DNA of 64,000 nt. Origin: Candidatus Margulisiibacteriota bacterium. Its GTDB lineage: Bacteria; Margulisbacteria; Marinamargulisbacteria; JBFWNS01. The notes beneath the pieces were generated by a model that was not told the origin of the DNA, did not search any database, and was given only the letters and a program-made list of their open reading frames with translations. Shown in pieces: positions 5,754 to 40,794 of the stretch. Location of the stretch: contig JBFWNS010000002.1 in assembly GCA_050250935.1 (NCBI GenBank), forward strand, positions 67,130-131,129. Direction: 5' to 3'. The position numbers were made by a program, and so were the translations under genes. Each line of letters begins with the position of its first letter. Position 1 is the first letter of the stretch.

Positions 5754-5764
5754 ATTTAAATAAG

Positions 5765-6013: not shown

Positions 6014-6048
6014 GACTCAATCCTCTTTAAACAAATAGTAGACACCAA

Positions 6049-6077: not shown

Positions 6078-6170
6078 GCCAAAAACATCCCCCTAGACCT
6101 TGTCCGTCCTGTGGCTTACACTACTCCAGACTTCTGAAGATCCACTTCCTTCACCAATAAGGAGAAATCG

Positions 6171-13168: not shown

Positions 13169-16100
13169 TTATTTTAGTTTAATCAGCTTGCTGCGGACCT
13201 CTTGGGTTTCACCATCGCCTTCGGCAATAATTTTGTACAGATAGACCCCGTTGAGCACCCCACGGCCATCGCTGTCTTTGCCATTCCAACTTACGTCGTG
13301 GTATTCGGCCAGTAAACTGGAAGCCGAGGTATCGCCCTCCAATTCCCGAATCAAATCCCCGCCCAGGGTGAAAATTTGGATCCGAAGCCGGTTGACCGAT
13401 TTGCTGAGTTTATACCGAATTTTGGTACTGTCCTTAAACGGATTGGGATAGTTGATCACCCCTTCGATCTGCAGCTTGGGCGCCACATAAAACCCACCCG
13501 CTTCGCTGGAAACGGCTTGGCTGTTCAACGAGGGATTCAATTCCACCACCTGCCACTGCCACCACCCCGGCGCCAAGGTGTCGGTCCAGAGCGGTGTAAA
13601 GGCCAAGGTTGTGTTGGTTCGCTGAATCTGACTGGGCAGTAGATCCCATTTCTGGCTTCGGTCTTCGCTGGCAAAAGGCGTTGAGTCCATGGGCTCGACC
13701 CAATTTTGCTTCAATTCAATGCGGTATTGGAGGGCTGGATTGTAGGTGGGGACTTGCCAGGTGAAAGTGGGTTTGTTGGTTTGTAGGGTTGGGTTGTTTT
13801 TGGGGGAAACTAGGTCTAGACCAACTTCAATTGTAGTATTGCTTGAAACACCCAACAGGGTAGTCCCCGGTAGAACTGTAGCATAAATGCCATTTGATAT
13901 CTCGCCATCTAAGCGAACATAAACTGGGGTATCTATTTTGGAGACTACTTTCGTGGTGCCATTCTCTAAATATTTTTTAAAATATAAATATGCGGGGCCA
14001 GTAGATTGATAATGGAGGATCCACATTTCGTTTAACCCTTTTTGAAGGGGAATGGTTAATGGAACCGGACCAGGAACATGACTTGAAATGGCACTAATCA
14101 CGGTACCATTCACCTTAACCGTTTCATCATCATCAGACTCAATCAGAAAATTATGCTCTTGGGGGGTAATGGATTGGGGAGAGAAGTAGTAAAAATGGTA
14201 GTATTCACTCCAATCATTGCTTGCAAGATTCCCCCTCCCCCCTCCATTGGTACTCGAATAAAAGTTAATATCATCTAGAAACGATGTGTACGATAAACGT
14301 GAGTTTGAATTGGTTAGAAGTTTCTCGAAATTAACATTTCGAATTCCCCGCATCCATGAACTCATCAGAGCCTCATTCATCGATTGCTGCTCTGTGGTAT
14401 CCTGATAAAACCAGTTGGCCGGTATGAAGCTATTGTCTACATCCGTAAATGTCCAATCCATATGCCCCCCAGTATCCCAATTATCCGTCCATAAAATAAA
14501 AGGATAAGATACTTCCTCTTCCATGTTGACTTTTTTCATCACCGCTTCCTCTTTGGCTTCGGGCCGGCTATGCACCAAAGTTCCATTAATCCATAGACGA
14601 CACCCCCCAATATGGCTCACATAAAACTGTTTTAAGCCACCTTGCCCTCTTGGCGCTCTAATAAATCCTTTGACAATGGCACCGTACTGCCCATTTGTTG
14701 GGAAATCGAAATCCTCGGCCCTTAACCAAAATTGCTTATTTAGCATTACACGTGTAGACATTGGATGTGCATAGAAAGTCATACTACGATTGTCTCCTGT
14801 ACGGGTAAACGAATAGGTGTCGAGCCTAAAACCAGGCAGCAAAGTTGTGATTCTGGTTCGAAACCCTTCATAATCTACGGGCAATGAAATTTTGGTTCTT
14901 TGTGCTGAATCAGACTGAAGCACATAGACAACAACACCCCCATTTGGCCCGATATCTGACTGCACATCTAGTGCTTTACCGGCTGTTACACAAGAATATC
15001 GTGGGCTCCAACTCAACCCATCGTCGCTAAGGGCAATATCAACTTTGGCATCGGAAGGAACAACCGCCCATTGTTTATTATTAATTTTTCTGAATAAAAC
15101 AGGGTCTGCAGCCACCGTATAATTGGCAACATCTTGCTGATAAGTGAGCCTAAAAGAGATTGTTTTGCTTGTTGTAAAAACATTGTCAGACACAACAATC
15201 TCGGCATTATACGTTCCTTCCAATGGGGAATAGCCTTCAATGGTTTTCAAGTCCCAGAGCACATCGCTGACCTCTCCATTCAGTTTTTGACCCAAGAGTA
15301 GTGTTTTAACCACACTCCCATCCTGCCGCTTAATTTTGACCTGAACCGGCATGCTGGCGATGAGGTTGTCTGACACCCGGAAATGGATGACCATGTTGCC
15401 GTCGTAAACGGGGTTCACAGTGGGGGTCACTTGAACCTGGTCGATGACTGGGGCTGTCGAATCGAATCGATAGGTGCCTTGCCAGGTTCCGGTGTTGGTG
15501 GCGATGTCCCCTGCCCTTAATGCCAAAATATGGTCGCCATCTCCGGGAATGGGAATGGCCCCGCTGGCCCAGTCTGTCCAAGGACCGTTGTTCCAGCGGT
15601 ATTGGCGATAAGCCCACCCTGAATTTCCGTCGTCTGTCATGGATACCACAATGCCAGACAACGCCGTTCGCCATTGATCCGAACTGCCAGCAGCCGAAAC
15701 CACAGGGGCTTGGGTGTCTTGGGCATAAACCGCGTTCCAAACCGTACTGGGGTTAAAGGCTTGGTCCCAGGCTTGAAGGTAGAGGGTGTGGGTACCTTCG
15801 CTGGGAATGGCGGTTGTTTGGCCGTTGGCAAACACAGTTCCGTTGCTGACATCGGGATTATCCCAGCGGTATTTTACATAGCCGGGATTTAACCCAGAGC
15901 CAGGGGTCGGATCGGTGGCCGTTAAGGTGATGTTCCCAATGGCCGTGGTATACCAGCCCAATTGCACTTTATTGGCACTCACGACTGGGACTTGGGTGTC
16001 TTGTTGATAGGGCCCACTCCACACGGTACTGGCATTGCCCGCAGCATCCCAAGCTTGCAGGTAGAGGGTGTGGGCCCCTTCGCCTGGGATTGTGAGGGTT

Positions 16101-19100
16101 TGTCCTGTTGAAAACGATGTTCCATTGGCCACAGCGACATTGTCCCAGCGGTATTTTGCGCCGCTCAATCCGCTGCCCGGTGCCGCATCGGACACCGACA
16201 GGGTGATGGTTCCAATGGGCACCACCGACCATTGGGAACTGCTTTTGTCTGCCAAAACCACTGGGGGTACCGTGTCGATGTTGTAGTCCCCTGTCCACAA
16301 TCCGGACACATTGCCAGCAGTATCGTAGGCCTTCAGATAGAGGGTATGACGCCCTTCTCCAGGCACCGTAATGCCCGTTCCATTCGCAAACGAGGTTCCA
16401 GAATCCACCAGAACATTGTCCCAGCGATACTTGGTTCGAACTGGATCCAAACCCGAACCTGGCACCCCATCGGTAGCCGTCAGGGTGATGGTTCCCAGCG
16501 AAAACAAATACCACCCCGAATTGGATAAATTGGCCGAAGTTTGGGGTGTCGCCGTGTCTTGCTTGTACAACCCGCTCCACACCACGCCAGCATTCCCCGC
16601 CAAATCCCAGACCTGAATATAGAGGGTATGGGATCCCTCGCTTGGGATGACTGTGGTCTGGCCAGAACTATAGGGTGTTCCATTGGACACATCGCTGTTG
16701 TCCCACCGGTATTTGGCTGTTCCCACCCCAGATCCCGGTGACGGATCGCTGGTATTTAGGGTGATGGTTCCCAGCGCCGTTGTAGACCAACTGAGCGACG
16801 ATTTATCGGCACTTCCCGATGGGGCTTGAGTGTCTTGTTTATATGTCCCAGTCCACACCGCACCTGCATTGCCGGCCACATCCCAACTTTGAACGTACAG
16901 GGTATGGCTTCCCTCGGCTGGAATGGTGATGGTTTGACCCGACACAAAGGTCGTTCCATTGGCCACATCTGGGTTGTCCCACCGGTATTTCGAAGTGCTG
17001 ATGCCCGAGCCAGGTTGTGGATCGCTTACGGTTAATGTGATGTTTCCAATGGCCGTGGTTTTCCAAGTACCCGAGGATTTATCTGCAGTGGCAACGGGGG
17101 GTTGGGTATCTTGTTTATAGGTACCTGTCCACACAGAACCTGCATTTCCTGCCACATCCCAACTTTGGATATACAAGGTATGGCTTCCCTCGGCAGGCAT
17201 CGTCATGGTCTGCCCCGACACAAAGGCCGTTCCATTGGCCACATCGGCGTTGTCCCAGCGGTATTTCGCGGTGGTAATACCCGACCCAGGCAAGGCATCG
17301 GTGGCCGACAGGGTGATGTTCCCAATCGCCGTCGTCTGCCAAGAACTGGAAGACTGGGTGGCGGTTGCGACCGGGGCTTGGGTGTCTTGGTTATAGCTTC
17401 CAGACCAAAGCGTAGTGCTGTTTCCGGCGATATCTTGAACTTTCAAATAGAGGGTGTGACTTCCTTCTCCGGGTGACGACAGAACTTGCCCGTTGCTAAA
17501 CAAAGAACCGTTCACCACATCCGAATTGTCCCAACGATACATCACGAAATTGGGATTCAAACCAGAGCCCGGTACAGGGTCACTTGCCGTGAGGGTGATG
17601 GATCCGATCGGAGAAACCGACCATCCCGCCTGGGCCTTATTGGCATTGACGGTTGGGGTTTGGGTGTCTTGCAAATAGGTACCTGACCAGGTTTGGGTAT
17701 TGCCTGCCATATCGATTGCCGTTAAATAGAGGGTATGACTGCCTTCTGCTGGCAGGGTAATGCTTTGAGAGGCTACAAACGTGGTTCCATTGGCGGCATC
17801 GGCATTGTCCCAGCGGTAATGGGCCGACACCAAACCCGAGAGTGCATCGGAAGCGGATAAGGTAATGGCACCAATGGCTGTCTTGGTCCAAAGACCCGTT
17901 ATTTTATCGGCACCTAAAGTGGGTGGGGTCGCATCAAAAACAGTGGTTCTGATTAGGGTTTCCGATTGATTTCCCAATCGGTCCCGAAGTCGATAGGCGA
18001 TTTGCTGGGTGCCCTCGTTGCTAAACGTCACCCCGTCAGAGATTGGGGACAGGCTGTTTAGGGTTTGGATTACGGTAAAGGAGCCGCCATTGAGTGCCCG
18101 TTCCAAAGTCAGGGGAAGACTGGCGTCCGAGAGCCCACTCAGGTTTAGGGTTGCCGAATTCGCTTTCATAAATCCAGCCAAGTTTGAAACCGAGACGGTT
18201 GGCGCCAAAGAATCCACCCAAAGGGACTTATTCAGAAGGGTGGTATTTCCAGCCAAATCGGATACCGTCACCACCACTGGAAACGTGCCATTGATTCCAG
18301 TTGTGTTCACCGAGTAAAGCCCATTCGCCGACACCACCATAGCTCCATTCACGGCGACTTGAACGGCATTCAAATTGACTTCAGAAATCGTCACGCTAAA
18401 CGCCACATTGGTTGAAACCTCTCGGTCTGTGGCTGGCAGGGTCGATGCCAACCCATTTTGCCATAGAATCGAGGCCGAGGGTGCGATGGAATCGTAAACC
18501 ACCGAGGCCGTTGCCACCGCCGATGTATTGCCGGCTCGGTCTTTGGCCTGAAGGGTGATGGTTTGTGTCCCTTGAATCGCTTGAAGTGGAAGGGTTGGCC
18601 CTGTGACCAACACCCCATTGGCATAAAAGTTCAGCTGTGCTGGGGAATCGGTGTTGTCTTGCGCTATTTTGGTGTGGGCAATGGACAAAGCATTGGTATA
18701 CGCCGATCCCAAGGCAAACTGGGTGATGGTTGGCGGGGTATTGTCGATGACCATTTGGTTATTCGCCACCACATTTTGGGTGGCCCCATTTCCCGCATTA
18801 TCGGTAGCGCGAATCTCGACCCGGTACACCCCATCAGGAACCAAAGTTCCACGAAGTGCCACAACAGAATGGTCGGCTGCATATCGGCCATCCCAAACAG
18901 TTGAAACTGGGCTAAACATCGCCGTGATGGTCGCTTGCTTGGTCAACACAGGCTGGTTCGGCTGACCTTCGGGATAAATCCGCAGTTCGTAGGTTCCCCA
19001 GCTGGGCAGTGCGAAGGGTTTGAAATCTTTATTCGGGTAGAGGGCTTTAAAATCAGCACTGGTTCGAATACGCTCATCCACAAACGAGAACATATAATTA

Positions 19101-31100: not shown

Positions 31101-34100
31101 TCCCAATACTGGCCCCAGACCGGCTTGCTGATGCGAACCACCAAATCGCTGGACAAACTGGTTCCAGGTAAAACCGCCTCGGTCCCATTAAAGACTGCAT
31201 CCAAACTGTTGCTCGACACCGGCCCCGAATTAACCGTCAATGCAGTCACAGACAGCCGATACGAAGACCGGTCCACATTTGCTGGCAACTTGGCGTTTAA
31301 ACTCGGAATTAATGCCGAGGCCACCAAGGTTGTTTTGTACTCGCCTTGGGTGTTGGCACTGGGATAGTTCAAGGCAAACGGAAAAGTAAACTGCCCCGGC
31401 CCATCACTGAGGGCGCCTTGGGGAATCTCGACCCAATACTCGCTGACCCGGCTGAGTTGGCCATTGGGCAGCTCTGGGGATAGGGTCAATCGGTTAATCA
31501 GGGCTTTTTCGTATTGGTTCAACAGTCGGTTCAACATCAAGCGCTTCAGGCTATTGGAGCTGTTAAACGCATCATCACTGCGCTGGTTCAGGGTGGCAAT
31601 CAGTTCCGCGTCCAAGGGATAAGGCACCTGAACTTCGGCCACTTTATCCGTGGCAACGGTGTATTTGGCCTTGGACCGGATATTTTCAGACCCCGCCAAT
31701 GGCGAAGGCACCGGCGAAATGGTGTACCAGCCGCCGGTTTTGCCAGGATCGCTTAAATTCACCACGATCAATTCGAATTTTTCGTCGTCGAGATAATTGT
31801 AATAGCTAGACCCCAGTTTCGAGACCTCGTCCCATTTTTGAAACGGGGTGGTCATCAGTTGGGTGATGGCATCTGTGCTGCCATTTTTGATATCCGCCAC
31901 GTTATAGGCGATCACTTTGTTTAGGTTTTTAATGTAGTCGTCGTAAGGCTGTTCAAAAAAACCGGTTCTTGGAAAACCCAACTGAGAGGGATCTTCCAAG
32001 AACCCCGAAAAATCGATAGCCGCCAGCGGACTGCCTTTTTTGGTCTTGTTCACAATCCCAAACCAGGGCATAAACCGGTTGTTGAGGCGGGAGTATTTCA
32101 TGTCTTCTTCGAGTTGAATATCCGCAGTAAACACATAGTGGTCTCGGTCCAATCGCTCCAAACCACCCTTATAGACAAAGGCGCCTTTTTCCCCAGCTTT
32201 AAAGTTTGGGATTTCGTTGCGCCACCCTTCTGATGCCACATAGTCCTCGTAGTACCCCACAACCTCCGGTTCGATATTCATGGCGTTGATCTTTGAATAA
32301 TATTTTTGGTAGTCCCATGCTGATTTTGGAACATAGATTAGATCGACATCAAATCGTCCAGGTTCAAGAAGCTTGGTATATTTTCGCTTTGTGACTCGGC
32401 TATAGTAGGACAAATCACTGATTGTTTTCTTCTCTATCTCCTTGCCGTCTGGGGTTCGAACACGCACGGTCAACACAATGGATTCTGGTTCGTTAATATC
32501 GTCTTGGCTTTGGGATAAAAAGTGAAAATTCTCAGGGATTTCCAAGGGATAAACCAGGGTGTATTTATTTTGCGAATTTTGCTTAAAGGAAAGTGCTTTT
32601 TCCATAACCCTATGTATCGTGTTGTAATTTTTAATCCACCCTTGCGTGTTAAAAAAGCCATCAGCACGCTCCCAATGACGATACCGAATATCCAGCTCAT
32701 AGGTCACATTCACATTAACCGTCTCAAACCACCGATGCGCCACTGTAACAAAGGGGACATAGGGATAGGCGGTGACGTTTTGCCAGCCATTTTGTAAATC
32801 AACACCCACTTGGCCAGTGATGGGGTCATAGCGGTTTCCTTTTGCTTGGGTTTCCCAAAACACTGCCGTTTTACCTTGAACAATCGGCACCGGCTGGCCG
32901 TTGATGGTTTCCGTTTTAATGTCCATGCTGACCCAGTTGTCCCATTGGGAGGCTGAGGCGCCGGTTTGTTTTAGGGTGAGGGGCAAGGTGATGGTTTTAT
33001 CCCCCACCCCGTCTTCCGCTCTTAGGTTTACATTCAAAACATAATTGCCGGCGGCAGCCAAAAGGCCGTCCTGGTTTTTACCATTCCAGGTAAACGCATA
33101 AGCCCCATCGGCTGTGGTGGGTTGAACGGTTAGTCCGTCTGCAAGGGTCAAGACTTCGGCGCCTTGGCTGTCCCGGACTTTGGCCCTTGCCACAGCCTTC
33201 TTACTGGCGGTGACGTAAACCGTGGCCACATCGCTTTGAGAATAAGGATCGATGGTTAGGGTGGGTAGTCCCAAGGCATCCCCCAAATTCGCCTTGGCTG
33301 TTCCCGCTTTTAACGCAAAGGGTGTTTGCAAGCTAAACGCCGAGGCCGTACTGACCACCGCGTTCGAACTGGGATTTTCCAGGGTCAGTACGGCATCGTA
33401 GCCGCCGCTGTTGGGATATCCGCCATTCAGCCCTTTCCCATCCCAAGAAAAGGTGACGATCGGCTGAACCTGGTTGCTTAACATCACCGGATTCATGAGG
33501 GGATGATTTTTCCCCACCCCCAAATACAGATCCCCGGTTTGCAAGAAATTTTGCTCTTGGCCATCCATCACAACATTCACCATCAACAAAGGATCCGAGA
33601 AGGTTTCAGTCAGATTAAACAACACCCGCCCAAGCGTGGTGATGGTGCCTTCAAACACCACCCCATTGCCCAGGGTTTTAAGTTGGTTGCTGGGAATATT
33701 CACGGTTTGAACCCCAGTTACCTGCCCTTTGAGTGGGGTAACCGTCACCTTAAAGGATTGTGCAGACCCATTGGTTCGCATGGCTATTCCCCATTGTCCA
33801 GAACTGGGGTCTTTATAAATATAGGTCCCGCCACGGTCTGTATAGAGATCCGGCACACCCATGTAGTCCGGTGATGATAAACCCGAATATGTCCGGCTCA
33901 TCACCACTTGCTGCGAGGTTTTGTTGACGATATCAACGGTTAGGTTTCCGCCGCCATTCAGCACCCCCGCTTGAAAGGTTAAGGGCGATTGGGCCACATT
34001 CGTGGTTACTGGTTTTTGAATCCAGGACAGCATGCCCACCCCCGTTGCCGTGGCCGTTTCAACATCTCCAAAAACAGCCAAGGTGATGGTTGTAAAAGCC

Positions 34101-35431
34101 GTTTCCAGGCCATCTTGTGCGACCAGGGCAACGGCATATTCGCCTTCGGCCAAGCCAGCGGTCTGCAAATAGCCCAAACTATCCACCCCACGTATTTCCA
34201 CATTGCCTTCGCTGGAACTTCCTGTTTGGGCAAAGGTCCCTTTTCGGAACCGGGCACTGACGGCTAAAGCTGGATTAGGGGCATAATCGCTCAGCTGATT
34301 GGTGGCCTCCCCTGCCTTAAAAAGCAGCTTGAATTTCTGAAGGGGCTGTCCGTTGGTCAGGTCTGGATCCATCACCAGGCCCCGAATCGCCACCGTCTCG
34401 CCACGGTTAATTTGTTCGTGGTCCAAGGGTGTGGACAGAATGGGCACAGACCCATCTTTAACAATCGCCACCCGTCTCTCGTTTTGATTCCCATAGGCAT
34501 CTTGCACCCGAATCATCACGGTATAACTGCCTTTGGGAAGTCCGGCCAAAGACAGGGTTTGGGTTGACGATTGCCCCGCCTCTAGCACGAGATTTCGGCT
34601 GGTGACAACGGCATTTTTGTCATTCATCACCAAAAGGGTTCCGTTTAAACTTTCGGTTTGACGGGATGTGGGCAGATTGGCCAACACCTGAACCATCACC
34701 ATATCGTCTTGAACGCTGGTCACCACCAGGGGGGTTACCGTTTCGACAATGTCCGGCGCCGTTCTCACAATGGTGATGGAAGAGGTGACCATTGACTCGT
34801 TTCCTGCCTCGTCCTGGATCCCAATTTCAAGGGTATAGACGCCATCTGGCCAATTGGTATCCAGGGTTATATCGGCTTGGTACTGCCAGATTTGGGCATT
34901 TTGCGTTACCTGGGTTTGTCCCAGAGCCATCACCTGCCCCATCGAATCTTTGAGGGTTATGGAGGCCGAGGTTACCTCTGAAGTATTAAAAAAAAGCTGT
35001 AGGTTTCGATCTCCCAAAGCATAAGCCTGGATTCCATTAGTGGCCGCCTTGGCAAACCTAAGCGAGCTGAGGGTCGGTGGGGTTCCGTCGACGAAGAGAT
35101 CACTTTCAATGGTATCTTGGTTGCCAATGGTGTCTTTTAAGGCAATTTTGATTCGATATACCCCATCCTCCAGCGCCGATTGCGGCACCCAGGACAAAGT
35201 CCGAACCCCATAACTGCCCGAAGGTGTTGTCTGTAGGGTTTGAAGGGGGCCTATGGCACTTCTTCCCTGGCCATCCTCAATTCGTTGAAAGGTAATGGCT
35301 TCTTCCTGCCACAGTTTTGTTCCAGAGTCTTCGACAGAATAGGTAAAGTTGAGCGTGGGGATCACAACCGCTGCCTGCGTTATATTTCCTAAAAAAACCA
35401 CAAAGAGCAGCACCCCAAACAAGCGGTTCAT
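13169..35431 (-). CDS. Giant (7420 aa) secreted multi-Ig protein with FlgD-Ig repeats, ZU5-like domain, PA14-like domains and C-terminal YPNPF sorting-like domain
   Basis: Uninterrupted 22.3-kb ORF with a Sec signal (MNRLFGVLLFVVFLGNITQA), dozens of DxxPP...DxAGN Ig-like units, about 10 WxG...G.Y FlgD-Ig motifs, and C-terminal INYPNPF...WNGKDSDG...NGVYLYKI...KLIKLK. Confidence 0.93.
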   Translation of the reverse strand: MNRLFGVLLFVVFLGNITQAAVVIPTLNFTYSVEDSGTKLWQEEAITFQRIEDGQGRSAIGPLQTLQTTPSGSYGVRTLSWVPQSALEDGVYRIKIALKDTIGNQDTIESDLFVDGTPPTLSSLRFAKAATNGIQAYALGDRNLQLFFNTSEVTSASITLKDSMGQVMALGQTQVTQNAQIWQYQADITLDTNWPDGVYTLEIGIQDEAGNESMVTSSITIVRTAPDIVETVTPLVVTSVQDDMVMVQVLANLPTSRQTESLNGTLLVMNDKNAVVTSRNLVLEAGQSSTQTLSLAGLPKGSYTVMIRVQDAYGNQNERRVAIVKDGSVPILSTPLDHEQINRGETVAIRGLVMDPDLTNGQPLQKFKLLFKAGEATNQLSDYAPNPALAVSARFRKGTFAQTGSSSEGNVEIRGVDSLGYLQTAGLAEGEYAVALVAQDGLETAFTTITLAVFGDVETATATGVGMLSWIQKPVTTNVAQSPLTFQAGVLNGGGNLTVDIVNKTSQQVVMSRTYSGLSSPDYMGVPDLYTDRGGTYIYKDPSSGQWGIAMRTNGSAQSFKVTVTPLKGQVTGVQTVNIPSNQLKTLGNGVVFEGTITTLGRVLFNLTETFSDPLLMVNVVMDGQEQNFLQTGDLYLGVGKNHPLMNPVMLSNQVQPIVTFSWDGKGLNGGYPNSGGYDAVLTLENPSSNAVVSTASAFSLQTPFALKAGTAKANLGDALGLPTLTIDPYSQSDVATVYVTASKKAVARAKVRDSQGAEVLTLADGLTVQPTTADGAYAFTWNGKNQDGLLAAAGNYVLNVNLRAEDGVGDKTITLPLTLKQTGASASQWDNWVSMDIKTETINGQPVPIVQGKTAVFWETQAKGNRYDPITGQVGVDLQNGWQNVTAYPYVPFVTVAHRWFETVNVNVTYELDIRYRHWERADGFFNTQGWIKNYNTIHRVMEKALSFKQNSQNKYTLVYPLEIPENFHFLSQSQDDINEPESIVLTVRVRTPDGKEIEKKTISDLSYYSRVTKRKYTKLLEPGRFDVDLIYVPKSAWDYQKYYSKINAMNIEPEVVGYYEDYVASEGWRNEIPNFKAGEKGAFVYKGGLERLDRDHYVFTADIQLEEDMKYSRLNNRFMPWFGIVNKTKKGSPLAAIDFSGFLEDPSQLGFPRTGFFEQPYDDYIKNLNKVIAYNVADIKNGSTDAITQLMTTPFQKWDEVSKLGSSYYNYLDDEKFELIVVNLSDPGKTGGWYTISPVPSPLAGSENIRSKAKYTVATDKVAEVQVPYPLDAELIATLNQRSDDAFNSSNSLKRLMLNRLLNQYEKALINRLTLSPELPNGQLSRVSEYWVEIPQGALSDGPGQFTFPFALNYPSANTQGEYKTTLVASALIPSLNAKLPANVDRSSYRLSVTALTVNSGPVSSNSLDAVFNGTEAVLPGTSLSSDLVVRISKPVWGQYWDSTQDPNLVSKEGKLQGLVMDIQVPLFNGKQKMDTVLVKSGYPPVSANLPGALFWKEGVNPNVEVTSWTPVKLFDETGGVHPDLSCDGVVGADPLWAGFTVSIASAKQKAFYTPFYAKQQLNPDWELSTRTQAAWEPIELISKPTGSRLGLWNVGRKNGWQDIRLKNGNTVALTRVMVGTPVRPAEAAVVKSPYGRVQVMIPAGTFAQDKLITVTPVALADLHITNSPDIQDLDFMPIVEILPETASANFNKTVTLKYQYTADEVKAIEAGTYPGLSKPVNLDNVAIYHISESGILTPAKATTGGRWSDLDGDGVLGSKGDLYTISAELDHFSIYASLEGLIPDQPKFSAETTKTAANTVTLYGYLEKNVTQDGRLMPLGLALYAGGLDQNNQIQLKPDQIQWLEGNPSYNLKLVNVPLQEGPNTFFLTYPTGNLKILNRPYAKISVVRDTTPPTFIQTQLQGNYVSGNTTVVFSPNGDGRGDEVRFSFYPSEAGTVRFLVADTAGKTMANTVLSVSDLSQPLTFRWNGCVDVAIPSRDVRPNLAVPEGRYTLYVTYLDEALNQSQAQFGVVVDQTPPTVSVKAPAFWSYADPESLVPWTLVFSDNAALSRAQLRLMAAGQQVASLSIPLQSGEALQPTITISVDAVHYLLDALPKTYVGPVTASLWTRDMAGNSSAVSVNVMVDHEAPTVVKKWALGKLWEGKTITINQSLAEKGVTFGVAAWDNRVSSANLDIQWQVETKTETMSIGTGSRLNVPFSIWQNLHPEDGEVRVSARISDGYLSTMATFNVALVMNPPQLVTANVVSPKFSPKAKTFSSLDLGFSAPVTGRLVLTNAAGKSVWETGVSGNRWVQVWPLSGAPDGGYTWTLTFQDVYRNTGTPWTSTVIQDQLPPTILIPFENAVFAALPTENLASVIKVTDNVSTTLNTQITFLANGAVLKQPLIEDAKVNQIFYLVTATDKAGNTQTAQGSFLFDREAPVISLPETLGVTSNTLKITPKIWDQSPVRVTLIPTKGSPQSVTVNPTQEIPMTLDVSDWPEGTTVLAIQAVDRFGHTSTGSVKVLLDRAPPVITRITLSPRPLFLEPGIATVSIQATDASGSPLIYKIALPTFEWETITTNPVVAVPVGLVMGQRTKADSVALRVTVTDAAGWSVSTQNTLPVIQSLPAPVWQIGDRYGSVAKPITVTVNVSALAAVVSQDVRLKISLVNDEKPVVTVFDDRLNQTQWAFSLKPTAAWADGAGYTLKTEVWVSDVLRGTFYQAQPAFPNQYLVIQNQPLAIADSTLSRTLAGRNTPVKLTLQNTIEWTDVQLQFQPASGSPVALGAWESGTALTFPNNLPDGVGQVVVAALSKSGIKSSLSLPLTWDSTPPELTHPETVAFKAYDQGQTDLVFRSSEPLSLLNVKVIGADNKPVEAWIPEIAWNNRHDTATVTWTGRKSPSVYLPEGTYKVVATATDLADNTSTATVTLSQINDFPNLWIDATAEAMNPQTGSLTLYLRLNTDYDALSLKLTDSQRGTVARTLVPSKPMKAGVYTLTFDGKDDSGVPLKDGIYDWVAEANKAGIAEPVTNKKRLIIKTRGPVFYPTLSRTQLRKDRFPITIQNIDIDPAWVFGIALLDAQGKTLDTLYEKPRYQSVNKSALTLTDLMGSGKTDRLDGSYKIQLYAVDEAQNRAQSVFDIDYKLAVKGTATIHSEKPFFTPNGDGILEVLNASVGVDSTESQVDVQVRVETEGGKVLVPALAKTKLQRGQSLPVTWGGYDVNRMAQPDGLYALVAEVTAEDGGLLESKRYPFAMIAQKPVLSLASPIAYSPNLGTITLNAQVVASDVLFRADFLSTELKLNGTVTVGGVKKILLTDGFDLKNRTSTALVLSPAWANDLPDGTYPVTIRMEDSILNVFETTPVQVVVSRSGPVTPSMALAGPQVTSQSVAVLMVSAPGAKTVRLMNTVGQIQTLAVSGNVATATVSLTEGTNTFKATALNTLGNASATGNAVTVLLDRISPTVVSASVSSTLLGANQTATASVTFSKPVWVPGGGLVVKGVDMASPSVSVQELLSPTLSVTHRFSLSSPSLNLAGTLSLSLSGVVDQAGNPLQTEIKSVGDVTIGYLMIDTLPPATPSVSAPALVTTSILTLAVADEAGSVLSLSLNGQNVPIQTLPIASGKQVTITGLVEGNNTLQFRSTDAMGNTSDWSPTVSVVMDTTPPVLSLLSAAAGWVSTGYQQVVVTANEALKTVSATFNGTPMTAFGSGVFGIDIRATENQGTASIQFTAQDLAGNTSILAATPFAVDTVPPELNLLPITQQTVSSGSIQVTVNASETLATASVTFNGTPMTSLGAGVYTYAISNSEPQGALTVVVHSKDLAGNESTLTTAPYSVDTIAPSLNAVLNLPSRISTGPIQVTINANESLASLKATLNGTAMTVSGNTLSTTLLQTAHQGPATLVVLAKDKVGNGTELTLIPFEIDTIAPILTLKNTNPAWVKAGTITLGVSVNELIASQSARLNGHPMTPVGEGLWTYTITSSDAQGVATFTATLTDRAGNTSTLTEIPFSIDTVPPSVPQVVTFSPQSNQAQVSVTLLGDVGSELWVSQNGQVASTQVLLTGQAQPWTSLPLKAGENQLSFASRDLAGNQSEWSVPIIITQRFDPAVLQTYRFSANPASVGLWQGTLVFSEPVTVLSAGWTLNQLETPCSLTVSGNTVTVSAAITAGMNGTALLQLSSVQNQAGVTTSVQLPFVIDTTPPKAVTISGIRTVSTGDVVVTLNINEGVSANATFNGHPMTTQSTADNTVRWSYTIGQDEVQGTANIIVTLVDAAGNSAVVTMNTVVVDTVQPQILAMNWNKPISSLGSIEVRVTFSEAVVSPKFTVNGKTIPGVQTGSSSFQLSVPIVGDEVQGMATITTMAKDAAGNGLNDSRQAWVVDTLAPTVSVQADPFRTVGLGWVQVTINASENISTPTVSINGHPMSAVGGGVFGYVVSSADAQGTANFEVRAKDLAGNATVVQISPFVVDTVGPKLSLSPSDSVLVGLGSVTVTVNASETLSSLRASINHQPMTAVGQGVFRYTITPADTQGTADIEVEAVDEVGNQSSVTASVFVVDTVAPSLNLVSMLPNRISTGPIQVMINANEPLLTLTATLNSKAMTVSGNTLSTTILQTEQQGPATLVVSAQDTVGNGTELTLSPFEIDTIAPVLTLQPAAAEAVSTGAIRFEVTVNEPLATVNATLNGKPLEVTIVDSGSIELAGTITAEDNQGLAQLMLLASDTVGNQTVVTATPIRIDTEKPILTLSTPSGRLSTGNVVVTVSANETLSRLSAMLNGFPMSVSGNSLAFTITSTAFQGPATLVVSAQDSVGNGTEETLIPFEIDTIAPTLTLSTNAPAFVSTGPVTVTLTANEALSSQTLWLNNRPMTASGDVFTTIIEATDAQGPAVLLATGIDLAGNTTSQTETLFEIDTLAPTLKLSSEVFQTVSTGTITLTVTTDETLATLNATFNDSPMQALPGGGFQTLILPTAQQGTASVTITATDRAGNTTQLTPVLYGIDTQPPTASIADFPAFISTRAATLQVSAIADASFPVQLEWSLNGGVWQEGPLVQEPGSAAQNVTFATEGTQTLKLRLRDRLGNVSETNTRETITDFTPPQVVSVTVLDSAGQPDPEPLYRSDKTILVTFSEPISSTLATASFGTIALPIQQITTSAVQITITEAQLVGSSAVFELAGIQDQAGNAMAPYAKTYALDLVPPDLKTVTLNTDALPDPTALSQFNTQGLKIAQGYLTAALSFSKPVMNPKVFVAVQGIRKEATWMTVTPNAVSTAEFKVLIKAADLGFLANPNEVDATLEIENARDVAGNLLSPQSLPIVLDMEAPVVTNHGADNGITVDKNDLYYGVIKPYGVSGQQDQLRVWFTLSEPALVSAIQIVQVSPNVLVKTLTNPTKTGPNGDEYSFVWDGKDETGKLVGNAKSQYFYYVTVTAKDKAGNLANQNIDGYISVLHQDTGVRLSSPLPVEPKAPGLDQTVPINYMFSFVDERIRTSADFKALYPNKDFKPFALPSWGTYELRIYPEGQPNQPVLTKQATITAMFSPVSTVWDGRYAADHSVVALRGTLVPDGVYRVEIRATDNAGNGATQNVVANNQMVIDNTPPTITQFALGSAYTNALSIAHTKIAQDNTDSPAQLNFYANGVLVTGPTLPLQAIQGTQTITLQAKDRAGNTSAVATASVVYDSIAPSASILWQNGLASTLPATDREVSTNVAFSVTISEVNLNAVQVAVNGAMVVSANGLYSVNTTGINGTFPVVVTVSDLAGNTTLLNKSLWVDSLAPTVSVSNLAGFMKANSATLNLSGLSDASLPLTLERALNGGSFTVIQTLNSLSPISDGVTFSNEGTQQIAYRLRDRLGNQSETLIRTTVFDATPPTLGADKITGLWTKTAIGAITLSASDALSGLVSAHYRWDNADAANGTTFVASQSITLPAEGSHTLYLTAIDMAGNTQTWSGTYLQDTQTPTVNANKAQAGWSVSPIGSITLTASDPVPGSGLNPNFVMYRWDNSDVVNGSLFSNGQVLSSPGEGSHTLYLKVQDIAGNSTTLWSGSYNQDTQAPVATATQSSSSWQTTAIGNITLSATDALPGSGITTAKYRWDNADVANGTAFVSGQTMTMPAEGSHTLYIQSWDVAGNAGSVWTGTYKQDTQPPVATADKSSGTWKTTAIGNITLTVSDPQPGSGISTSKYRWDNPDVANGTTFVSGQTITIPAEGSHTLYVQSWDVAGNAGAVWTGTYKQDTQAPSGSADKSSLSWSTTALGTITLNTSDPSPGSGVGTAKYRWDNSDVSNGTPYSSGQTTVIPSEGSHTLYIQVWDLAGNAGVVWSGLYKQDTATPQTSANLSNSGWYLFSLGTITLTATDGVPGSGLDPVRTKYRWDNVLVDSGTSFANGTGITVPGEGRHTLYLKAYDTAGNVSGLWTGDYNIDTVPPVVLADKSSSQWSVVPIGTITLSVSDAAPGSGLSGAKYRWDNVAVANGTSFSTGQTLTIPGEGAHTLYLQAWDAAGNASTVWSGPYQQDTQVPVVSANKVQLGWYTTAIGNITLTATDPTPGSGLNPGYVKYRWDNPDVSNGTVFANGQTTAIPSEGTHTLYLQAWDQAFNPSTVWNAVYAQDTQAPVVSAAGSSDQWRTALSGIVVSMTDDGNSGWAYRQYRWNNGPWTDWASGAIPIPGDGDHILALRAGDIATNTGTWQGTYRFDSTAPVIDQVQVTPTVNPVYDGNMVIHFRVSDNLIASMPVQVKIKRQDGSVVKTLLLGQKLNGEVSDVLWDLKTIEGYSPLEGTYNAEIVVSDNVFTTSKTISFRLTYQQDVANYTVAADPVLFRKINNKQWAVVPSDAKVDIALSDDGLSWSPRYSCVTAGKALDVQSDIGPNGGVVVYVLQSDSAQRTKISLPVDYEGFRTRITTLLPGFRLDTYSFTRTGDNRSMTFYAHPMSTRVMLNKQFWLRAEDFDFPTNGQYGAIVKGFIRAPRGQGGLKQFYVSHIGGCRLWINGTLVHSRPEAKEEAVMKKVNMEEEVSYPFILWTDNWDTGGHMDWTFTDVDNSFIPANWFYQDTTEQQSMNEALMSSWMRGIRNVNFEKLLTNSNSRLSYTSFLDDINFYSSTNGGGRGNLASNDWSEYYHFYYFSPQSITPQEHNFLIESDDDETVKVNGTVISAISSHVPGPVPLTIPLQKGLNEMWILHYQSTGPAYLYFKKYLENGTTKVVSKIDTPVYVRLDGEISNGIYATVLPGTTLLGVSSNTTIEVGLDLVSPKNNPTLQTNKPTFTWQVPTYNPALQYRIELKQNWVEPMDSTPFASEDRSQKWDLLPSQIQRTNTTLAFTPLWTDTLAPGWWQWQVVELNPSLNSQAVSSEAGGFYVAPKLQIEGVINYPNPFKDSTKIRYKLSKSVNRLRIQIFTLGGDLIRELEGDTSASSLLAEYHDVSWNGKDSDGRGVLNGVYLYKIIAEGDGETQEVRSKLIKLK
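15464..17935 (-). repeat. Nine tandem ~85-94-aa Ig-like repeats with YRW(D/N)N motif (intragenic)
   Basis: Consensus DTQxPxxxAxKxxxxWxxxxIGxITLxxxDxxPGSGxxxxKYRWDNxDVxNGTxFxxGQTxxxPxEGSHTLYxQxWDxAGN; eight YRWDN copies plus one YRWNN. Confidence 0.9.
20522..24520 (-). repeat. Array of ~88-95-aa Ig-like repeats, second family (intragenic)
   Basis: About 13 copies of DTxAPxL...STGxIxVTxxANExL...LNGxPMT...QGxAT...DxxGN. Nucleotide near-identity (GGGGCAATGGTGTCGATTTCGAA) near 21033, 21567 and 23718. Confidence 0.85.
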
Positions 35432-38298
35432 TTTTGTCCCTTATGCGGGTTATAAACCCCCATTTTCAAAATCTTAATCCGCGGCGGCGTTCTGTCCACC
35501 GAAAACCCATACCGCAAATAACTTTCTGTGTTATACGCATCATGCGCCTTGGCAATGATGGTGTACCGTCCATCGGGCAAACTCGGCAGCGTGTACACCA
35601 GCTCCAACCGGTTCAGGTTGTTCACATTCGGCTGGCTTTTGCGCACCTGGTCTGGGAAGGCCGTGATGATGTTCGTGGTTGGGCTAAAGGGGATGCTTGG
35701 CGTCGGCACCCCTGGGTTTTGAATCGGGTCCACTTGCACATACAACTCGTCGATCGCAATCTTATTCGCCGCTGTGTCGCTGTACTTCATGTTTTGGTAC
35801 ACCAACTTCACTTGGATGGTTTTGTTGTTTGTAATCGAATCCGGTTGCGGGCTCAGTTCGTCCAACACCGGTTGTAGGGTGATGCCGGTTTTGAGGATTT
35901 TGAGGTATTGGTTACTACTATACCCGGCCTGGTTTCGCAGCTTAAACGCCACAATATTTTGACCTTCCGACAACGGAATCGGTCCCAGTTCAAACCGGCC
36001 ATCTTCTTGAATCCTGGACTGTAAATCTGTCCAACCCCCAAAGTTCATGCTGTACTGGGCCACCACTTTTTTGGGCACCAGGTCTTGGATCAGACCCCGC
36101 AAATAGAGTCGTTCTTTATCCGTTGCGATCACCGACAACTTTTGGTCGCCCACCGTCCCATCTGGCCCCTGACCCCTCGGGTCTGCATTGAACAAAATCC
36201 GCTCGGGATCGTCCAACGATGTGGTTTCTTGGTTCAACGTCGCGATCCGCAAAATTTGAAACGTCTCTCCCCCACTGGTTACCGTGATGGGCTGGTACAA
36301 TTCCCCAGCACTGGCGCTAGCCTGGGCATTTTTTGTCACTTCAAAAACTCCTCCCCACAGGATGTTTTGGCTGGCCAGATATTGGCTGTCTTTGAAGGTG
36401 ATTAGAGGGGTGTCGAGTAGGCCTTTGATGATCTCGTCGTGGGCCCCATACATCTCTTGGTGCGCCAAATGATAGTATTGGAATTTCCCCTGCAATTCGA
36501 TGTATTTGCCCGTGATGTAGCTGATGATTCCCAACCGTCCCCCCATCAACACCAATTCTTGGGTCGAGGGACCTCCGTAAATTAGGGCCAAAACCCCAGC
36601 GCCTTCTACTGCCCCCACCATCATGGGCACGGTTTTACCCATCACCTCGTCCCATTCGGGAACATCGAACCGTTTTTCGATGCGCAGTGCGTCTTTGAGG
36701 TGGGCTGTTTTTTCCCCCCTACCCGACCAAACAGGAACTGCCAAATCGCTGTCTTGGGTAAAGGTCAAATACCCTGCAAATTTCCGGGTCCACATCGAGC
36801 TTTCAAATTGGCTCGTTGCACTTCCCAAGCCGGTATACCCGTTGCTTAAAACCTCGGTGGGCACTTCGCTGCTCAATACGGTGCTTAATCCCGCTTTTTT
36901 GAGCAAGGACCGGTAACTGTCTGCAAAACTTAGGGTTGGCAATCCTCGGCCGTACACCAAACTATAGCTCGGCTCTTCCCGTTTATCCGCTTTCTGAACT
37001 TGTTTTAACGCATGCACTACACGCCCCCAACCCTCCTTTGCATCCCCTATTGTATTTAAATTCACCGTACTAAATCCCAAATCCAATTCGTCTGGCACCA
37101 ATTCCAATGCCGCCTGATTCCAACCCCTCGGCTCTCCGCGAATCCCCAACATTGTCTCGATTGGGGCTTTGGAGGCTATCAGCTGCCCAACCAAATCCAC
37201 TTTCTGGATAAACCAATTCGATTCGGTAAAAGGCCACCACGGGTTTTTTACCGTTAACAACGGGTTTTTTAACCGGTTTAACCACAACCCCATCTGGTCT
37301 CCAACATCTTCCCCAGCCTTGGTGTACGTTTTGGCCGGTTCCAATCCCGCTGGACTGTTTAGCCCATTGGCTACCCCAGGCACCACATTATTCAGATTCA
37401 TCCCGGCATTAAACCCCTGCTGCATCTCTTTAACGATACCCCCACCCTGAGCGTAAATTTGAACAATCGGGCTTAAAGGACTCAGCACCGCCAATTCCGA
37501 CCCTTCCGTTGGCGCCGCCACCATCACAGCTTTGACCACGTCGTTTCGGTAAAACCCTTTGGTAAACAACCATTTCCGTTCAGCCAACTCGTTGCTGTAG
37601 ATGTACAACCGTGTACTAAAATTCCCCATTGAATGCGAAATAATGATGTATTTTTTCGGGACGATGCTGGCGGGAATGAGTTCGATGGTCTGATATTTTA
37701 GCCCTCTTGGTTGCGAAGGATCCTTGTTTAAATCACTGGTCAGGTACCACTGCTTCCAATCTTTCACCGCTTGCTCTAAAAAACAATTCCCAGGCTCAAC
37801 CCCTGTGGGAAAATATTGGTCCAAGGCTGGGTTATAGCTGAAATATTCATTGCGCTGGGTTTTATTGTTATAGGCAACATACGGCAATGGATTCCCATCC
37901 AACTGCCGCAACCAAGGTACGTCTTGAACCGCTCCTTTGATGCTATCTGTCCCACTCTCCAAAACCACGTTCCCCTTACGCAGCGGCGCACGAAACCCCC
38001 TATACCCCAACTCCATCGCGTTTTGCAGGTTGGTTCCTCGGCATTGGGTGTAGCTGTAGTTTTGAATATGCCCAAGTGGAATCCCCACCCGATCTCTCAG
38101 CATTTTCACCACATTGGTCCGCTCCCGCTTGGCCGCATCCCATTCGGAGTTGGTCCCGTCAAACGAGTTCTTATAATCGTTGATCCCGTGCACCAAAATA
38201 ATAATATAATCCTGATACGGACTCAGTTTTTGCCCACCCACTGTGACCCCACATAAGACCAACCACATTAAGAGCATCGCCCCCACTTTTTTCATCAT
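35428..38298 (-). CDS. Secreted alpha/beta-hydrolase (PGAP1/lipase-like) with C-terminal Ig-like domains
   Basis: Signal peptide, IILVHGIND, nucleophile elbow SHSMG, APTEGS, SDLAVP (candidate Asp) and LAHQE (candidate His), then Ig units (LSEGQNIV; LPDGRYTIIAKAHDAYN). ATGA overlap with the giant gene. Confidence 0.82.
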   Translation of the reverse strand: MMKKVGAMLLMWLVLCGVTVGGQKLSPYQDYIIILVHGINDYKNSFDGTNSEWDAAKRERTNVVKMLRDRVGIPLGHIQNYSYTQCRGTNLQNAMELGYRGFRAPLRKGNVVLESGTDSIKGAVQDVPWLRQLDGNPLPYVAYNNKTQRNEYFSYNPALDQYFPTGVEPGNCFLEQAVKDWKQWYLTSDLNKDPSQPRGLKYQTIELIPASIVPKKYIIISHSMGNFSTRLYIYSNELAERKWLFTKGFYRNDVVKAVMVAAPTEGSELAVLSPLSPIVQIYAQGGGIVKEMQQGFNAGMNLNNVVPGVANGLNSPAGLEPAKTYTKAGEDVGDQMGLWLNRLKNPLLTVKNPWWPFTESNWFIQKVDLVGQLIASKAPIETMLGIRGEPRGWNQAALELVPDELDLGFSTVNLNTIGDAKEGWGRVVHALKQVQKADKREEPSYSLVYGRGLPTLSFADSYRSLLKKAGLSTVLSSEVPTEVLSNGYTGLGSATSQFESSMWTRKFAGYLTFTQDSDLAVPVWSGRGEKTAHLKDALRIEKRFDVPEWDEVMGKTVPMMVGAVEGAGVLALIYGGPSTQELVLMGGRLGIISYITGKYIELQGKFQYYHLAHQEMYGAHDEIIKGLLDTPLITFKDSQYLASQNILWGGVFEVTKNAQASASAGELYQPITVTSGGETFQILRIATLNQETTSLDDPERILFNADPRGQGPDGTVGDQKLSVIATDKERLYLRGLIQDLVPKKVVAQYSMNFGGWTDLQSRIQEDGRFELGPIPLSEGQNIVAFKLRNQAGYSSNQYLKILKTGITLQPVLDELSPQPDSITNNKTIQVKLVYQNMKYSDTAANKIAIDELYVQVDPIQNPGVPTPSIPFSPTTNIITAFPDQVRKSQPNVNNLNRLELVYTLPSLPDGRYTIIAKAHDAYNTESYLRYGFSVDRTPPRIKILKMGVYNPHKGQK

Positions 38299-38301
38299 GG
38301 T

Positions 38302-39249
38302 CTATTTGATAATCCTTCTATTGGTTCCATCAACATTCACTATTCCAATCCCCTCTTTTGCACCACCCCCATAGTTTGTGTACCCCGTTGTAAACATCAC
38401 CTCTTCCACATTCGTCGGATTTAATGGGTTTGTGGCCAACTGGTGCTCACCATTTATTGGCTCTCCAATCGCTATTGCCGCATCCAGGCTCGGATAGGTT
38501 TCGATTACCGTGAAATCAGAAGTTCGTCTTTTTGCAGTTGTATTTCCTGTCACGCCGCCCAAGAAATAAGTGCCCCCAGGGTAATACTGATCCGCTCCAC
38601 TTGGCATGGCATCATGAATAATGTCGCCAGTCTCGCTAACCATTCGAATCACATTGTTTGGATAGTTGCCATATTGACCGATTATGTTTGGGGCATACTT
38701 CCAACACTGTACCAACCCAAGACTATTCAGGGCACTTACAAACGCCCCATCCCTTGTATAAAGTTTAGCCCCGCCACTCTCGGTTCGAACCACTATCTTG
38801 GTTTCGTCGGGGCTCCAATCAAATTCTCGAATCACGCCGTCGTTTCTTGGAATTTCGATATCACTCACTTTTTGGAAACCCGGATACGACCATACTTCCA
38901 AGCCTATCCCACCCACCGTCACCACATAATTGCCAGACGGCGAGGCATTGGCCCGCATATATTCCTCGTACCCCAACCCCAGAATCTCCCGTTCTCCACT
39001 GCCGTCTGCATTCATGATCACCCAATGGTTTTTCTTGATTTGGCTGTTGCTGCCCCCACCCAGCCCCCCTTGGGTGACCGTCTCGATCCGCTCTCGCGTG
39101 GCCAGGATCTTGCCGTCCGCTGTCCATGCGGGATTGTAGTAGTAGTCCGAGGTTGTGGTTTTTCCGCCGCAGCCTGATAGCACAAATGCAAACAGCAGCG
39201 CCACCACTCCCAATAGTCCCTTTGTTTTTTTGTTTTGCAGTCTTGTCAT
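38302..39249 (-). CDS. Lipoprotein with TolB/PD40-like beta-propeller
   Basis: Lipobox VLSG-C; NPAWTADG, MNADGSGEREI, ASPSG, WSPDETKI, VNVDGTNRRI. Confidence 0.8.
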   Translation of the reverse strand: MTRLQNKKTKGLLGVVALLFAFVLSGCGGKTTTSDYYYNPAWTADGKILATRERIETVTQGGLGGGSNSQIKKNHWVIMNADGSGEREILGLGYEEYMRANASPSGNYVVTVGGIGLEVWSYPGFQKVSDIEIPRNDGVIREFDWSPDETKIVVRTESGGAKLYTRDGAFVSALNSLGLVQCWKYAPNIIGQYGNYPNNVIRMVSETGDIIHDAMPSGADQYYPGGTYFLGGVTGNTTAKRRTSDFTVIETYPSLDAAIAIGEPINGEHQLATNPLNPTNVEEVMFTTGYTNYGGGAKEGIGIVNVDGTNRRIIK

Positions 39250-39462: not shown

Positions 39463-40788
39463 TTAAAAAAAATAGGTCAGTACAACTTGCAAAGAAGTTC
39501 CACCCCAGGCCTTTTGCCCTGAAGACCCAGAGCCTGCCCCATCAGTCGAAGAGGTATCTGATGCAGGCTCGTTGGATGAGGCCTCCACCGTTTTGCTCCA
39601 CAGCGGAATCCATTGCGAAAGCCCCGTTTTTAGCTCTATCGAAGAGCCTATCTGCCACTTTTTAACCAACGAGATTTGGGCCAAATACACCCATTCCAGA
39701 CTCAGAGGCGCGGATCTTTCAAAATGATTGCCTACCAAAATTCGAGAATATTGGTCTATCGCACCGGCCCCCTCCATTTTGGATAGGGTGCACGCCAGCT
39801 CCCAATCGGATGCACGATAATTTCCTTGCACGCTATACTCTCTAAACGCTGCAGCAGGAATTGAATAAGCCGAAGTTCCAAAGCCATCCCAGGGCGGGGA
39901 GAGCCCATTACTGGTTTGGGCATAGCCGCGGGTTAGATCGGATCTTTTGTAGCCCAACCGTAACCCCAAAGAAGCCAATTCCCAATCCAAACTGGCTTCT
40001 TCAGACTCCAAAATTCCCTCCCCACTCAGCATTTCTTTGCCACTATAAACGGCTCCAAGCTTGAACTCGGTGGGCTCGCCTCTGCTATAGATGGCTTGCC
40101 AAGCACCAGTGTCGGTCTGCACTTTACAACCCAGCGTTAAAAACCTTGGTTCAAAGTTGCCGTTAAGTTGGTTTTGAGCACTTGATTCTCCACCCCACTG
40201 ATACACCCGACGCCCAGAACCCGCTTGAACTTGAATCCATTCATTAAGAGAAACCCCAACACCCACCTCGACATGGGCCAGGGTTTCGATGGGCTTAAAA
40301 ATCGCAACACTGTCTCCATTCGAAACAGAAAGAAATCGGTCCTGATTGTCTGTCTTTTCTGACCCATAAATTTCGATGGGCCCCAAAAAGAGCTTACCGC
40401 CGATCTCGTGAGATGGAAAATCGAGTCCAGAGGTGAGGCTATGGGTCGAAAAATATCCGCCCCACCCCTGCCACCAGGTCCCATCAAAGTGGGACCAGAC
40501 CCCGAGTTTTTTGGATTCCGAAGACAAGTGAACCTGAGTCTGAGGATCCCTAAAATCAAATTGATCGTTTGTCTGCACGTGAAGAATTCGAATTCTTCCA
40601 ATTTCTCCCCCAAAGCCCATCTCGGACTGAACCGTCTGGACCTGTCGCCAGCACTGGGTTTTAGAATCCTGAAACAACAGATCATGGGACAGATCTACCG
40701 CCAAAAAAGACCTATCTTGAGACCAAGCGGCCAACGAGATAAACACGCAGCAGCCGGCTAGAACACCGGCTGCACAAAACTTATTCAT
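39463..40788 (-). CDS. Putative outer-membrane beta-barrel protein
   Basis: Signal peptide, alternating amphipathic strands rich in G/W/Y, and C-terminal beta-signal LQVVLTYFF. Confidence 0.65.
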   Translation of the reverse strand: MNKFCAAGVLAGCCVFISLAAWSQDRSFLAVDLSHDLLFQDSKTQCWRQVQTVQSEMGFGGEIGRIRILHVQTNDQFDFRDPQTQVHLSSESKKLGVWSHFDGTWWQGWGGYFSTHSLTSGLDFPSHEIGGKLFLGPIEIYGSEKTDNQDRFLSVSNGDSVAIFKPIETLAHVEVGVGVSLNEWIQVQAGSGRRVYQWGGESSAQNQLNGNFEPRFLTLGCKVQTDTGAWQAIYSRGEPTEFKLGAVYSGKEMLSGEGILESEEASLDWELASLGLRLGYKRSDLTRGYAQTSNGLSPPWDGFGTSAYSIPAAAFREYSVQGNYRASDWELACTLSKMEGAGAIDQYSRILVGNHFERSAPLSLEWVYLAQISLVKKWQIGSSIELKTGLSQWIPLWSKTVEASSNEPASDTSSTDGAGSGSSGQKAWGGTSLQVVLTYFF

Positions 40789-40794
40789 TAAAAC

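Follow-up and report, generated by a model that had tools for sequence, protein, structure and literature searches.

The DNA analysed here, referred to as the window, is a 64,000-nucleotide stretch of a 1.95 Mb, 95.85% complete genome of Candidatus Margulisiibacteriota (contig JBFWNS010000002.1; G000:C2:67130-131129 in our genome set). It carries an operon of three minus-strand genes, which encode a lipoprotein (L), a secreted hydrolase with an immunoglobulin-like (Ig) tail (the head, H) and a giant Ig-rich protein (the stalk, G). An earlier note, made from the letters of the window alone, had taken the three for a surface-delivery system in which a long stalk presents a lipase with its cognate immunity protein, and the gene coupling it described holds, with open reading frames of 315, 956 and 7420 aa, a 3-bp gap and an ATGA overlap. 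What it missed is that the boundary between head and stalk lies inside a single Ig domain, and that there are several spare heads per stalk. The three genes and the elements at their boundaries are as follows, in window coordinates.

38302..39249, minus strand: L, lipoprotein of 315 aa with a beta-propeller (Cys27); candidate immunity protein, or else a periplasmic chaperone for the head, from a family found directly upstream of heads
38299..38301, minus strand: 3-bp gap between L and H
35428..38298, minus strand: H, head of 956 aa, consisting of signal peptide, hydrolase of lipase type, two Ig domains and putative terminal donor strand
35431..36426, minus strand: conserved tail of H, residues 625-956
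35431..35496, minus strand: putative terminal donor segment of H, residues 935-956, corresponding to strands A and A' of the next Ig domain
35428..35431, minus strand: ATGA overlap of the H stop and the G start
13169..35431, minus strand: G, 7420-aa stalk
35372..35431, minus strand: signal peptide of G (by eye and hydropathy), located where relatives are fused
35090..35356, minus strand: putative acceptor Ig domain of G without strand A (strands B-G, residues 26-114), with weak support from a complex model

Profiles of the head and of the stalk start were run over 146 genomes of the phylum. Each matches 49 of them, the stalk-start profile in some through weaker Ig matches, and the head matches bear out the conserved synteny on which the earlier proposal depended. 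At the best 30 stalk loci the head is fused in frame to the stalk in 24, the stalk has its own signal peptide in three (G000, G143 and G144), two are cut by contig ends and one is truncated; 34 of 38 metagenome loci, a sample that overlaps the genome set, are also fused. The gene order in G009 is a lipoprotein, a 10,112-codon open frame comprising head and stalk, a LolA-like gene and a PorV-like gene. Because head and stalk are fused in relatives, the lipase is located at the N-terminal end of the stalk, as the earlier note had proposed.

The split falls within one Ig domain, such that H retains strand A and a short A', and G starts at strand B behind a leader of 25 residues, which includes a signal peptide and stands at the break. 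From strand B onward the invariant residues of this domain are intact in G, complementary to the end of H. In a model of the fused junction of G007, the segment after a D-T-x-x-P linker, which free heads keep, is a strand at 116-120, and residues 110-219 as a whole match solved structures of single beta-sandwich domains (4xed: Z 11.3, root-mean-square deviation (rmsd) 1.9, 94 aligned). Sequence and domain boundary both point to an acceptor that lacks one strand and a partner whose terminus would supply it. A model of H alone has a mean predicted local distance difference test score (pLDDT) of 81, with residues 935-956 unpaired and of low confidence.

With most relatives fused, the split might be put down to an assembly error or to a recent inactivating frameshift of a fused gene. 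This is extremely improbable, and we regard it as largely refuted: contigs of two runs from different studies, X1 and X2, span the H/G junction without a gap (the X2 contig with 13 differences in 317 nt; X1 possibly being the source sample), the leader with its signal peptide stands at the break, four copies in the genome share the stop, and G144 is laid out in the same way. Read depth in X1 is higher over the tail than over its flanks; depth is no copy number, and it was not used as evidence.

The earlier note had suggested modelling the lipase with the N-terminal domain of the giant. Run as the H tail (residues 805-956) with G 21-232, the complex scores 0.60 against 0.00 for the best control, with no interface returned, agreement between runs in at least 90% of contacts and a partner pLDDT of at least 66. 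The mark for such scores is reached by 51 of 78 solved pairs and by 2 of 108 mismatched pairs; passing at 0.60 or less are only 5 of the 78 solved pairs and all 4 passing mismatches of 180, and halves of split genes tend to pass through likeness. The model thus lends strand docking weak support. The G fragment itself is predicted with a pLDDT of 82 beside the H tail and 69-71 beside unrelated partners. The genomic evidence outweighs the complex score, and we consider it highly probable that the head docks on the stalk by strand complementation.

One stalk appears to serve several heads. In the genome of the window, a search with the stalk-start profile gave one stalk start only, and there is a second complete pair of L and H (C3:23279-26952), two further H 3' ends where contigs C5 and C6 begin, and the start of an L gene where C1 ends. 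The stop codon has the same position in all four H ends, with unrelated DNA beyond it. Compared in steps of 50 residues, the heads on C2 and C3 are 18-70% identical up to residue 650 and 94-100% identical over 651-950. The last 1 kb of the two copies is 93% identical as DNA, and the last 330 codons differ with proportions of nonsynonymous and synonymous changes (pN and pS) of 0.017 and 0.264; the H tail is under purifying selection. In line with the earlier note's proposal, heads and upstream genes vary and tails are conserved.

The same arrangement is found elsewhere in the phylum. G144, from another class, has seven head matches and the order head, ATGA, signal-peptide stalk, PorV-like gene; its break lies a few residues earlier than in G000, between A and A'. 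G143 has a signal-peptide stalk, with a broken head on a separate contig. G007 is fused at the junction used by G000 and split at a more distal Ig domain (L023:9780-10200; L203; L204), where strand C is the last in three genes and a single stalk with its own signal peptide takes up from there (strands assigned by eye). Both G144 and G007 carry several heads. The joint arose through gene splitting at least twice independently. A word-indexed search with giant residues 21-420, limited to proteins of 4081-12985 aa, found no more split stalks. As read from the sequences, then, the system combines a split inside one Ig domain, a common head end, a conserved tail, a variable lipase and upstream gene, and fused relatives.

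Of 85 distinct head-tail frames in a census, 56 are fused, 11 are open at the end of the locus, one is unrelated and 17 are free heads with a verified stop. Eleven of these 17 end right after strand A, eight of them from the three genomes with a signal-peptide stalk; one row, L183, was moved by hand from the strand-A class to 'elsewhere'. The other six free heads end elsewhere, the stalk is fused or unresolved in the sources of the three other strand-A heads, and none of the 38 metagenome loci is split at this junction. These last counts tell against docking. They could mean that the spare heads are DNA cassettes recombining via the shared tail, or free lipases, with no protein docking or with rare frameshift joining at the overlap. 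Free heads beside fused stalks, the near-identical last kilobase and the weak complex score would all fit, and recombining cassettes are used by classical polymorphic systems (PMC3482391). Recombination is compatible with docking, and there are points against cassettes alone. The stalk's own signal peptide stands at the break in three genomes, and in a fourth at another site; a read-through product would hold a hydrophobic signal peptide within an Ig loop; the tails are conserved as protein; and the first domain of the stalk would be incomplete if its first strand were missing, and is modelled with more confidence beside the H tail than beside unrelated partners. We consider cassettes without docking distinctly improbable.

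The three strand-A heads from sources with a fused or unresolved stalk are each closely followed by a gene of one secreted family with Ig and LolA-like parts (L038:12282-13280, L039:573-1643, L031:1765-2883, L048:5376-6248), which also occurs near other heads and is a possible alternative acceptor or chaperone, judging by its position; it was not found among the G000 open reading frames. G006 encodes a 1938-aa fused protein (L024:8314-14130) with a degenerate-looking head and a strand-A-like end at a third position, the continuation of which was not found with two queries. At L052:12203-22316 and L092, two heads with identical ends are inverted around an integrase-like gene cluster, an arrangement that hints at cassette duplication. 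In L034 and L050 the cassette lies on contigs titled as other phyla, through mis-binning or transfer. The head copy on C6 (L104:282-1587) is followed by genes for a 206-aa protein and for a 240-aa protein with DUF3892, lysozyme-like by eye; the two are possibly another effector pair.

The enzyme of the head occupies one further feature.

36412..38223, minus strand: variable alpha/beta hydrolase domain of H, residues 26-629, with H37-G38, S223, D518, H613 and a large helical lid

A Ser-Asp-His triad was assigned from the alignment: S223 and H613 occur in all 24 rows that span them, and D518, read by eye, in 20 of 24. The earlier description of an exported, PGAP1-like hydrolase with an Ig tail is right as to fold, signal peptide and Ig domains; the PGAP1 Pfam model matches 8 of 26 family members and misses the protein of the window. 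By VIA, the best structural match of residues 26-629 is BlEst2, a secreted lipase (Z 17.9, rmsd 3.4, 221 aligned). Foldseek with the entire head gave Ig matches only, and with the tail of the head gave SiiE (PDB 2yn5) as top match.

L has the lipobox LSGC, whose Cys27 is shared by all 20 relatives aligned, and a TolB/WD40 beta-propeller fold in Atlas; its family profile matches TolB at E 6e-9, in agreement with the TolB-like lipoprotein of the earlier note. We reject L as a generic TolB, as its closest matches adjoin heads: the best 25 of 59 profile matches all do, 19 of them already in the profile and six new. The gene directly upstream of the head is L in 38 of 77 head starts and something else in 39; the non-L genes inspected encode small proteins of several unrelated families, most with signal-like N-termini. 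Surplus copies of L and pieces of heads have collected upstream of fused genes (L006, L045, L160, L184 and L188), some spare L genes being retained with head fragments only or without a head. Between two copies with an identical tail anchor region, L is ~37% and the head ~41% identical. Immunity proteins of Tle lipases are mostly periplasmic or lipoproteins (PMC9860674). From its place and variability, L is a likely candidate for the immunity lipoprotein of the head. A weaker L paralogue lies directly behind a gene that is Lon-like by its motif, with no head nearby, in all nine loci read (L126-L133 and L135).

The remainder of the stalk has the following features.

30032..30694, minus strand: conserved ZU5-like domain (weak ZU5 leads)
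30104-30112, minus strand: HFS motif, candidate self-cleavage site
15632..29434, minus strand: Ig-module array, residues about 2000-6600, with 33 of 36 D-x-x-G-N motifs
13900..15180, minus strand: segment of low GC close to the anchor end, containing two PA14-like modules
13172..13456, minus strand: C-terminal sorting domain resembling type IX secretion system (T9SS) type A domains (FlgD-Ig), likely export signal and anchor

The earlier note's outline of the giant survives with some corrections. There are indeed dozens of Ig modules, with 36 D-x-x-G-N motifs in the protein, and the HFS motif, at residue 1774, is shared by 22 of 24 homologue rows, counting duplicates. The assignment of the surrounding domain to ZU5 rests on leads of E 0.24 in one of 11 members and, in Atlas, 0.86 to a lead where 21% of members carry ZU5; a PDB profile search with the HFS domain gave a short match to a surface protein only and no ZU5 structure. 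Two PA14-like modules can be seen, with matches below the cut-off (E 0.003). The C-terminus resembles FlgD_ig and Por_Secre_tail, with a match to FlgD_ig and 22.1 bits for TIGR04183, just under its cut-off of 23. The patchy GC content is modest overall, with one clear dip, to 0.42-0.43, at residues 6751-7250. The non-repetitive N-terminal region of the giant is the conserved part of the family and not its variable tip.

The signal peptide of H, and the failure to find TssC in this genome with a control that matched in E. coli, do not support delivery of H by a type VI secretion system (T6SS). Delivery by two-partner secretion (TPS) is likewise not supported, since none of the three proteins has a TPS domain or filamentous haemagglutinin repeats, nor was an adjacent TpsB found; one marginal ShlB match lies on another contig. 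The earlier note was thus correct in seeing no T6SS, contact-dependent inhibition (CDI) or TPS hallmarks. Its absence of Rhs hallmarks holds for the window and not for the genome, where Rhs genes occur.

Export of the stalk by a T9SS-like route, with a C-terminal anchor, is what its sorting domain would suggest. In Bacteroidota, type A C-terminal domains (CTDs) support surface anchoring or release (PMC12618676). The PorV family model NF033709 has 11 matches in the genome, one over its cut-off, and Pfam PorV has none; PorV-family genes follow the stalk in relatives and not in the window, and are over the cut-off in two of the three relatives' genes scanned. Three large genes of the genome give weak partial SprA matches. 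Core motor and ring genes were not found (no match to GldM, GldN or SprA_N in the genome), but the control searches gave no match either. Since H itself lacks a sorting domain, its export would also depend on docking.

The genome has a second giant, of 5758 aa, on contig C9 (L101:6858-20000 and L102:1-18831; G000:C9:31978-68831), with a C-terminal domain of the same type. SprA-like, PorV-like and LolA-like genes lie ahead of it. Behind it come a gene for an NHL protein, one for an Rhs protein that has a signal peptide and a CHAP tip, and further Rhs fragments accompanied by small partner genes; C10 carries a second Rhs start. By analogy only, this coupling to Rhs is suggestive with regard to an effector role of the system described here.

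We propose that the operon encodes a polymorphic effector system of inverted polarity, in which exchangeable lipase tips dock by a strand, the anchor is C-terminal and T9SS-like, and immunity is encoded upstream; we put the probability of this at about one half. L, H and G would all enter the periplasm via Sec, where L would bind and silence the head and the last strand of H would complete the first Ig domain of G. The C-terminal sorting domain of the stalk would then drive export via SprA-like and PorV-like barrels and remain as the anchor, with the head at the outer tip of a filament ~0.15-0.2 micrometre long, as scaled from SiiE. The HFS site may release the distal part, and the head would hydrolyse lipids of the contacted cell. 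A C-terminal anchor would also account for the reversed order of the genes, in which immunity lies upstream and the effector comes first. Provided that the head docks, antagonism is the somewhat likelier function, and the head would be a likely contact-dependent, membrane-attacking effector. Slightly more tentative is a wider version, a phylum-wide inverted contact weapon in which at least three lineages have a plug-and-socket split, one 22-kb stalk gene serves many warheads, and the donated strand is the export ticket. The interpretation in the earlier note is thus partly supported: synteny, the N-terminal lipase and the variable heads and upstream genes stand, and the split mechanism and the scale of the system had escaped it.

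In chaperone-usher pili, type V pili and archaeal cannulae, the terminal strand of one subunit completes the incomplete Ig fold of the next. Here, too, the terminal strand of one protein would complete the Ig fold of its partner, but only once, where an enzyme meets a stalk made of one polypeptide, and not repeatedly along a chain of pilins. Giant Ig adhesins such as SiiE (PDB 2yn5) share the dozens of bacterial Ig modules and differ in that G has no RTX-type (repeats-in-toxin) C-terminus and has an exchangeable tip. Like polymorphic toxins (CDI/CdiA, Rhs; PMC3482391), the system has a long conserved carrier, a variable enzymatic tip, a linked variable small gene, stand-alone spare cassettes sharing a conserved junction and a candidate ZU5 self-cleavage site, and the spare L genes and head fragments upstream of fused genes mirror the cassette arrays of C-terminal polymorphic toxins. 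Its polarity, however, is reversed: there is no C-terminal variable toxin domain, the enzyme is N-terminal with its partner gene upstream, and tail and stalk are conserved. It further differs in having one family of tip enzyme, spares that are complete secreted genes, and a tip that can be a separate protein.

The Tle1-4/Tli pairs of the T6SS (Tle4-Tli4, PDB 4r1d; PMC9860674) are similar in their alpha/beta hydrolase with a Ser-Asp-His triad and large lid and in the adjacent lipoprotein gene, but H has a signal peptide, an Ig tail and S-H-S-M-G instead of GxSxG, its partner is a beta-propeller, and no TssC was found. With type A cargo and the PorV shuttle of the T9SS (PMC12618676), the system shares the C-terminal sorting-like domain, a PorV-family gene beside the stalks of relatives and weak SprA similarity in neighbours; it lies outside Bacteroidota, and its head, having no CTD, would hitchhike. 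The system therefore fails membership of the classical polymorphic toxins by polarity and of the Tle effectors by its signal peptide and the lack of a T6SS, and does not belong to CDI, yet it resembles them in layout. In the literature covered, which excluded most subscription papers and all supplements, it is not described; Additional File 1 of PMC3482391, outside that coverage, may list related ZU5-lipase proteins. Giant proteins of Omnitrophota have been linked to predation (10.1101/2023.11.21.568195), and two surveys of giant genes describe very large genes as common and uncharacterised in Margulisbacteria, with the word lipase in neither of the available texts.

Several observations weigh against a weapon. 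The outer surface of a target would present a lipopolysaccharide layer over phospholipid, and the route of a tethered lipase through it is without explanation. Every head found belongs to one alpha/beta hydrolase family, with no other type of toxin, in searches that were seeded with this family. As a structural match, Tle4 (Z 15.9, rmsd 4.5, 279 aligned) comes after ordinary lipases (Z 16.6-17.9). The candidate immunity gene is missing in 5 of 77 heads (L140-L144), which have a LolA-like gene alone directly upstream and, in four, an intact nucleophile motif; a further head, L145, has no close same-strand neighbour upstream. In a mirror test, equivocal in its outcome, of 14 of 17 pairs (three were dropped because the anchor pattern failed), with rough boundaries and kin that are not independent, L tracks the tail over the head (partial rho 0.62 vs 0.26, p ~0.02 for 0.26). 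Finally, large surface proteins combining ZU5 with lipases have been proposed to degrade extracellular polymers (PMC3482391).

With the PA14-like modules, which suggest adhesion, most of these points would suit heads that dock as proposed and act as lipases or esterases for feeding or attachment on particles, biofilm matrix or a host surface, with L as a chaperone for folding or transit and head diversity broadening the range of substrates. The upstream slot argues otherwise: its several unrelated families fit immunity better than a foldase, as do spare L genes accompanied by head fragments or by none, and L and head have both diverged where the tail anchor region is identical. We consider this function rather unlikely, and prefer the effector system with upstream immunity.

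Upstream of the operon, at window 39463-42990, lie two co-oriented genes of 441 aa and 731 aa with no Pfam or NCBIfam match, the former with a signal peptide and a terminal Phe and barrel-like by eye. A promoter scan gave no site upstream of L (0.7 expected) and two upstream of the C3 copy (0.5 expected), and was not used as evidence. A gene for a PemK/MazF-family toxin at window 48117-48536 is unrelated to the operon.

If the proposed effector system is real, it would give the giant proteins of Margulisbacteria a first concrete role and suggest how bacteria with small genomes attack or feed on their neighbours. It would also extend the logic of polymorphic toxins to N-terminal effectors on a C-terminal anchor, and T9SS-like export beyond Bacteroidota. 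The split-Ig joint, at two different domains, would amount to a naturally occurring pair of peptide tag and catcher, which protein engineering might be able to use.

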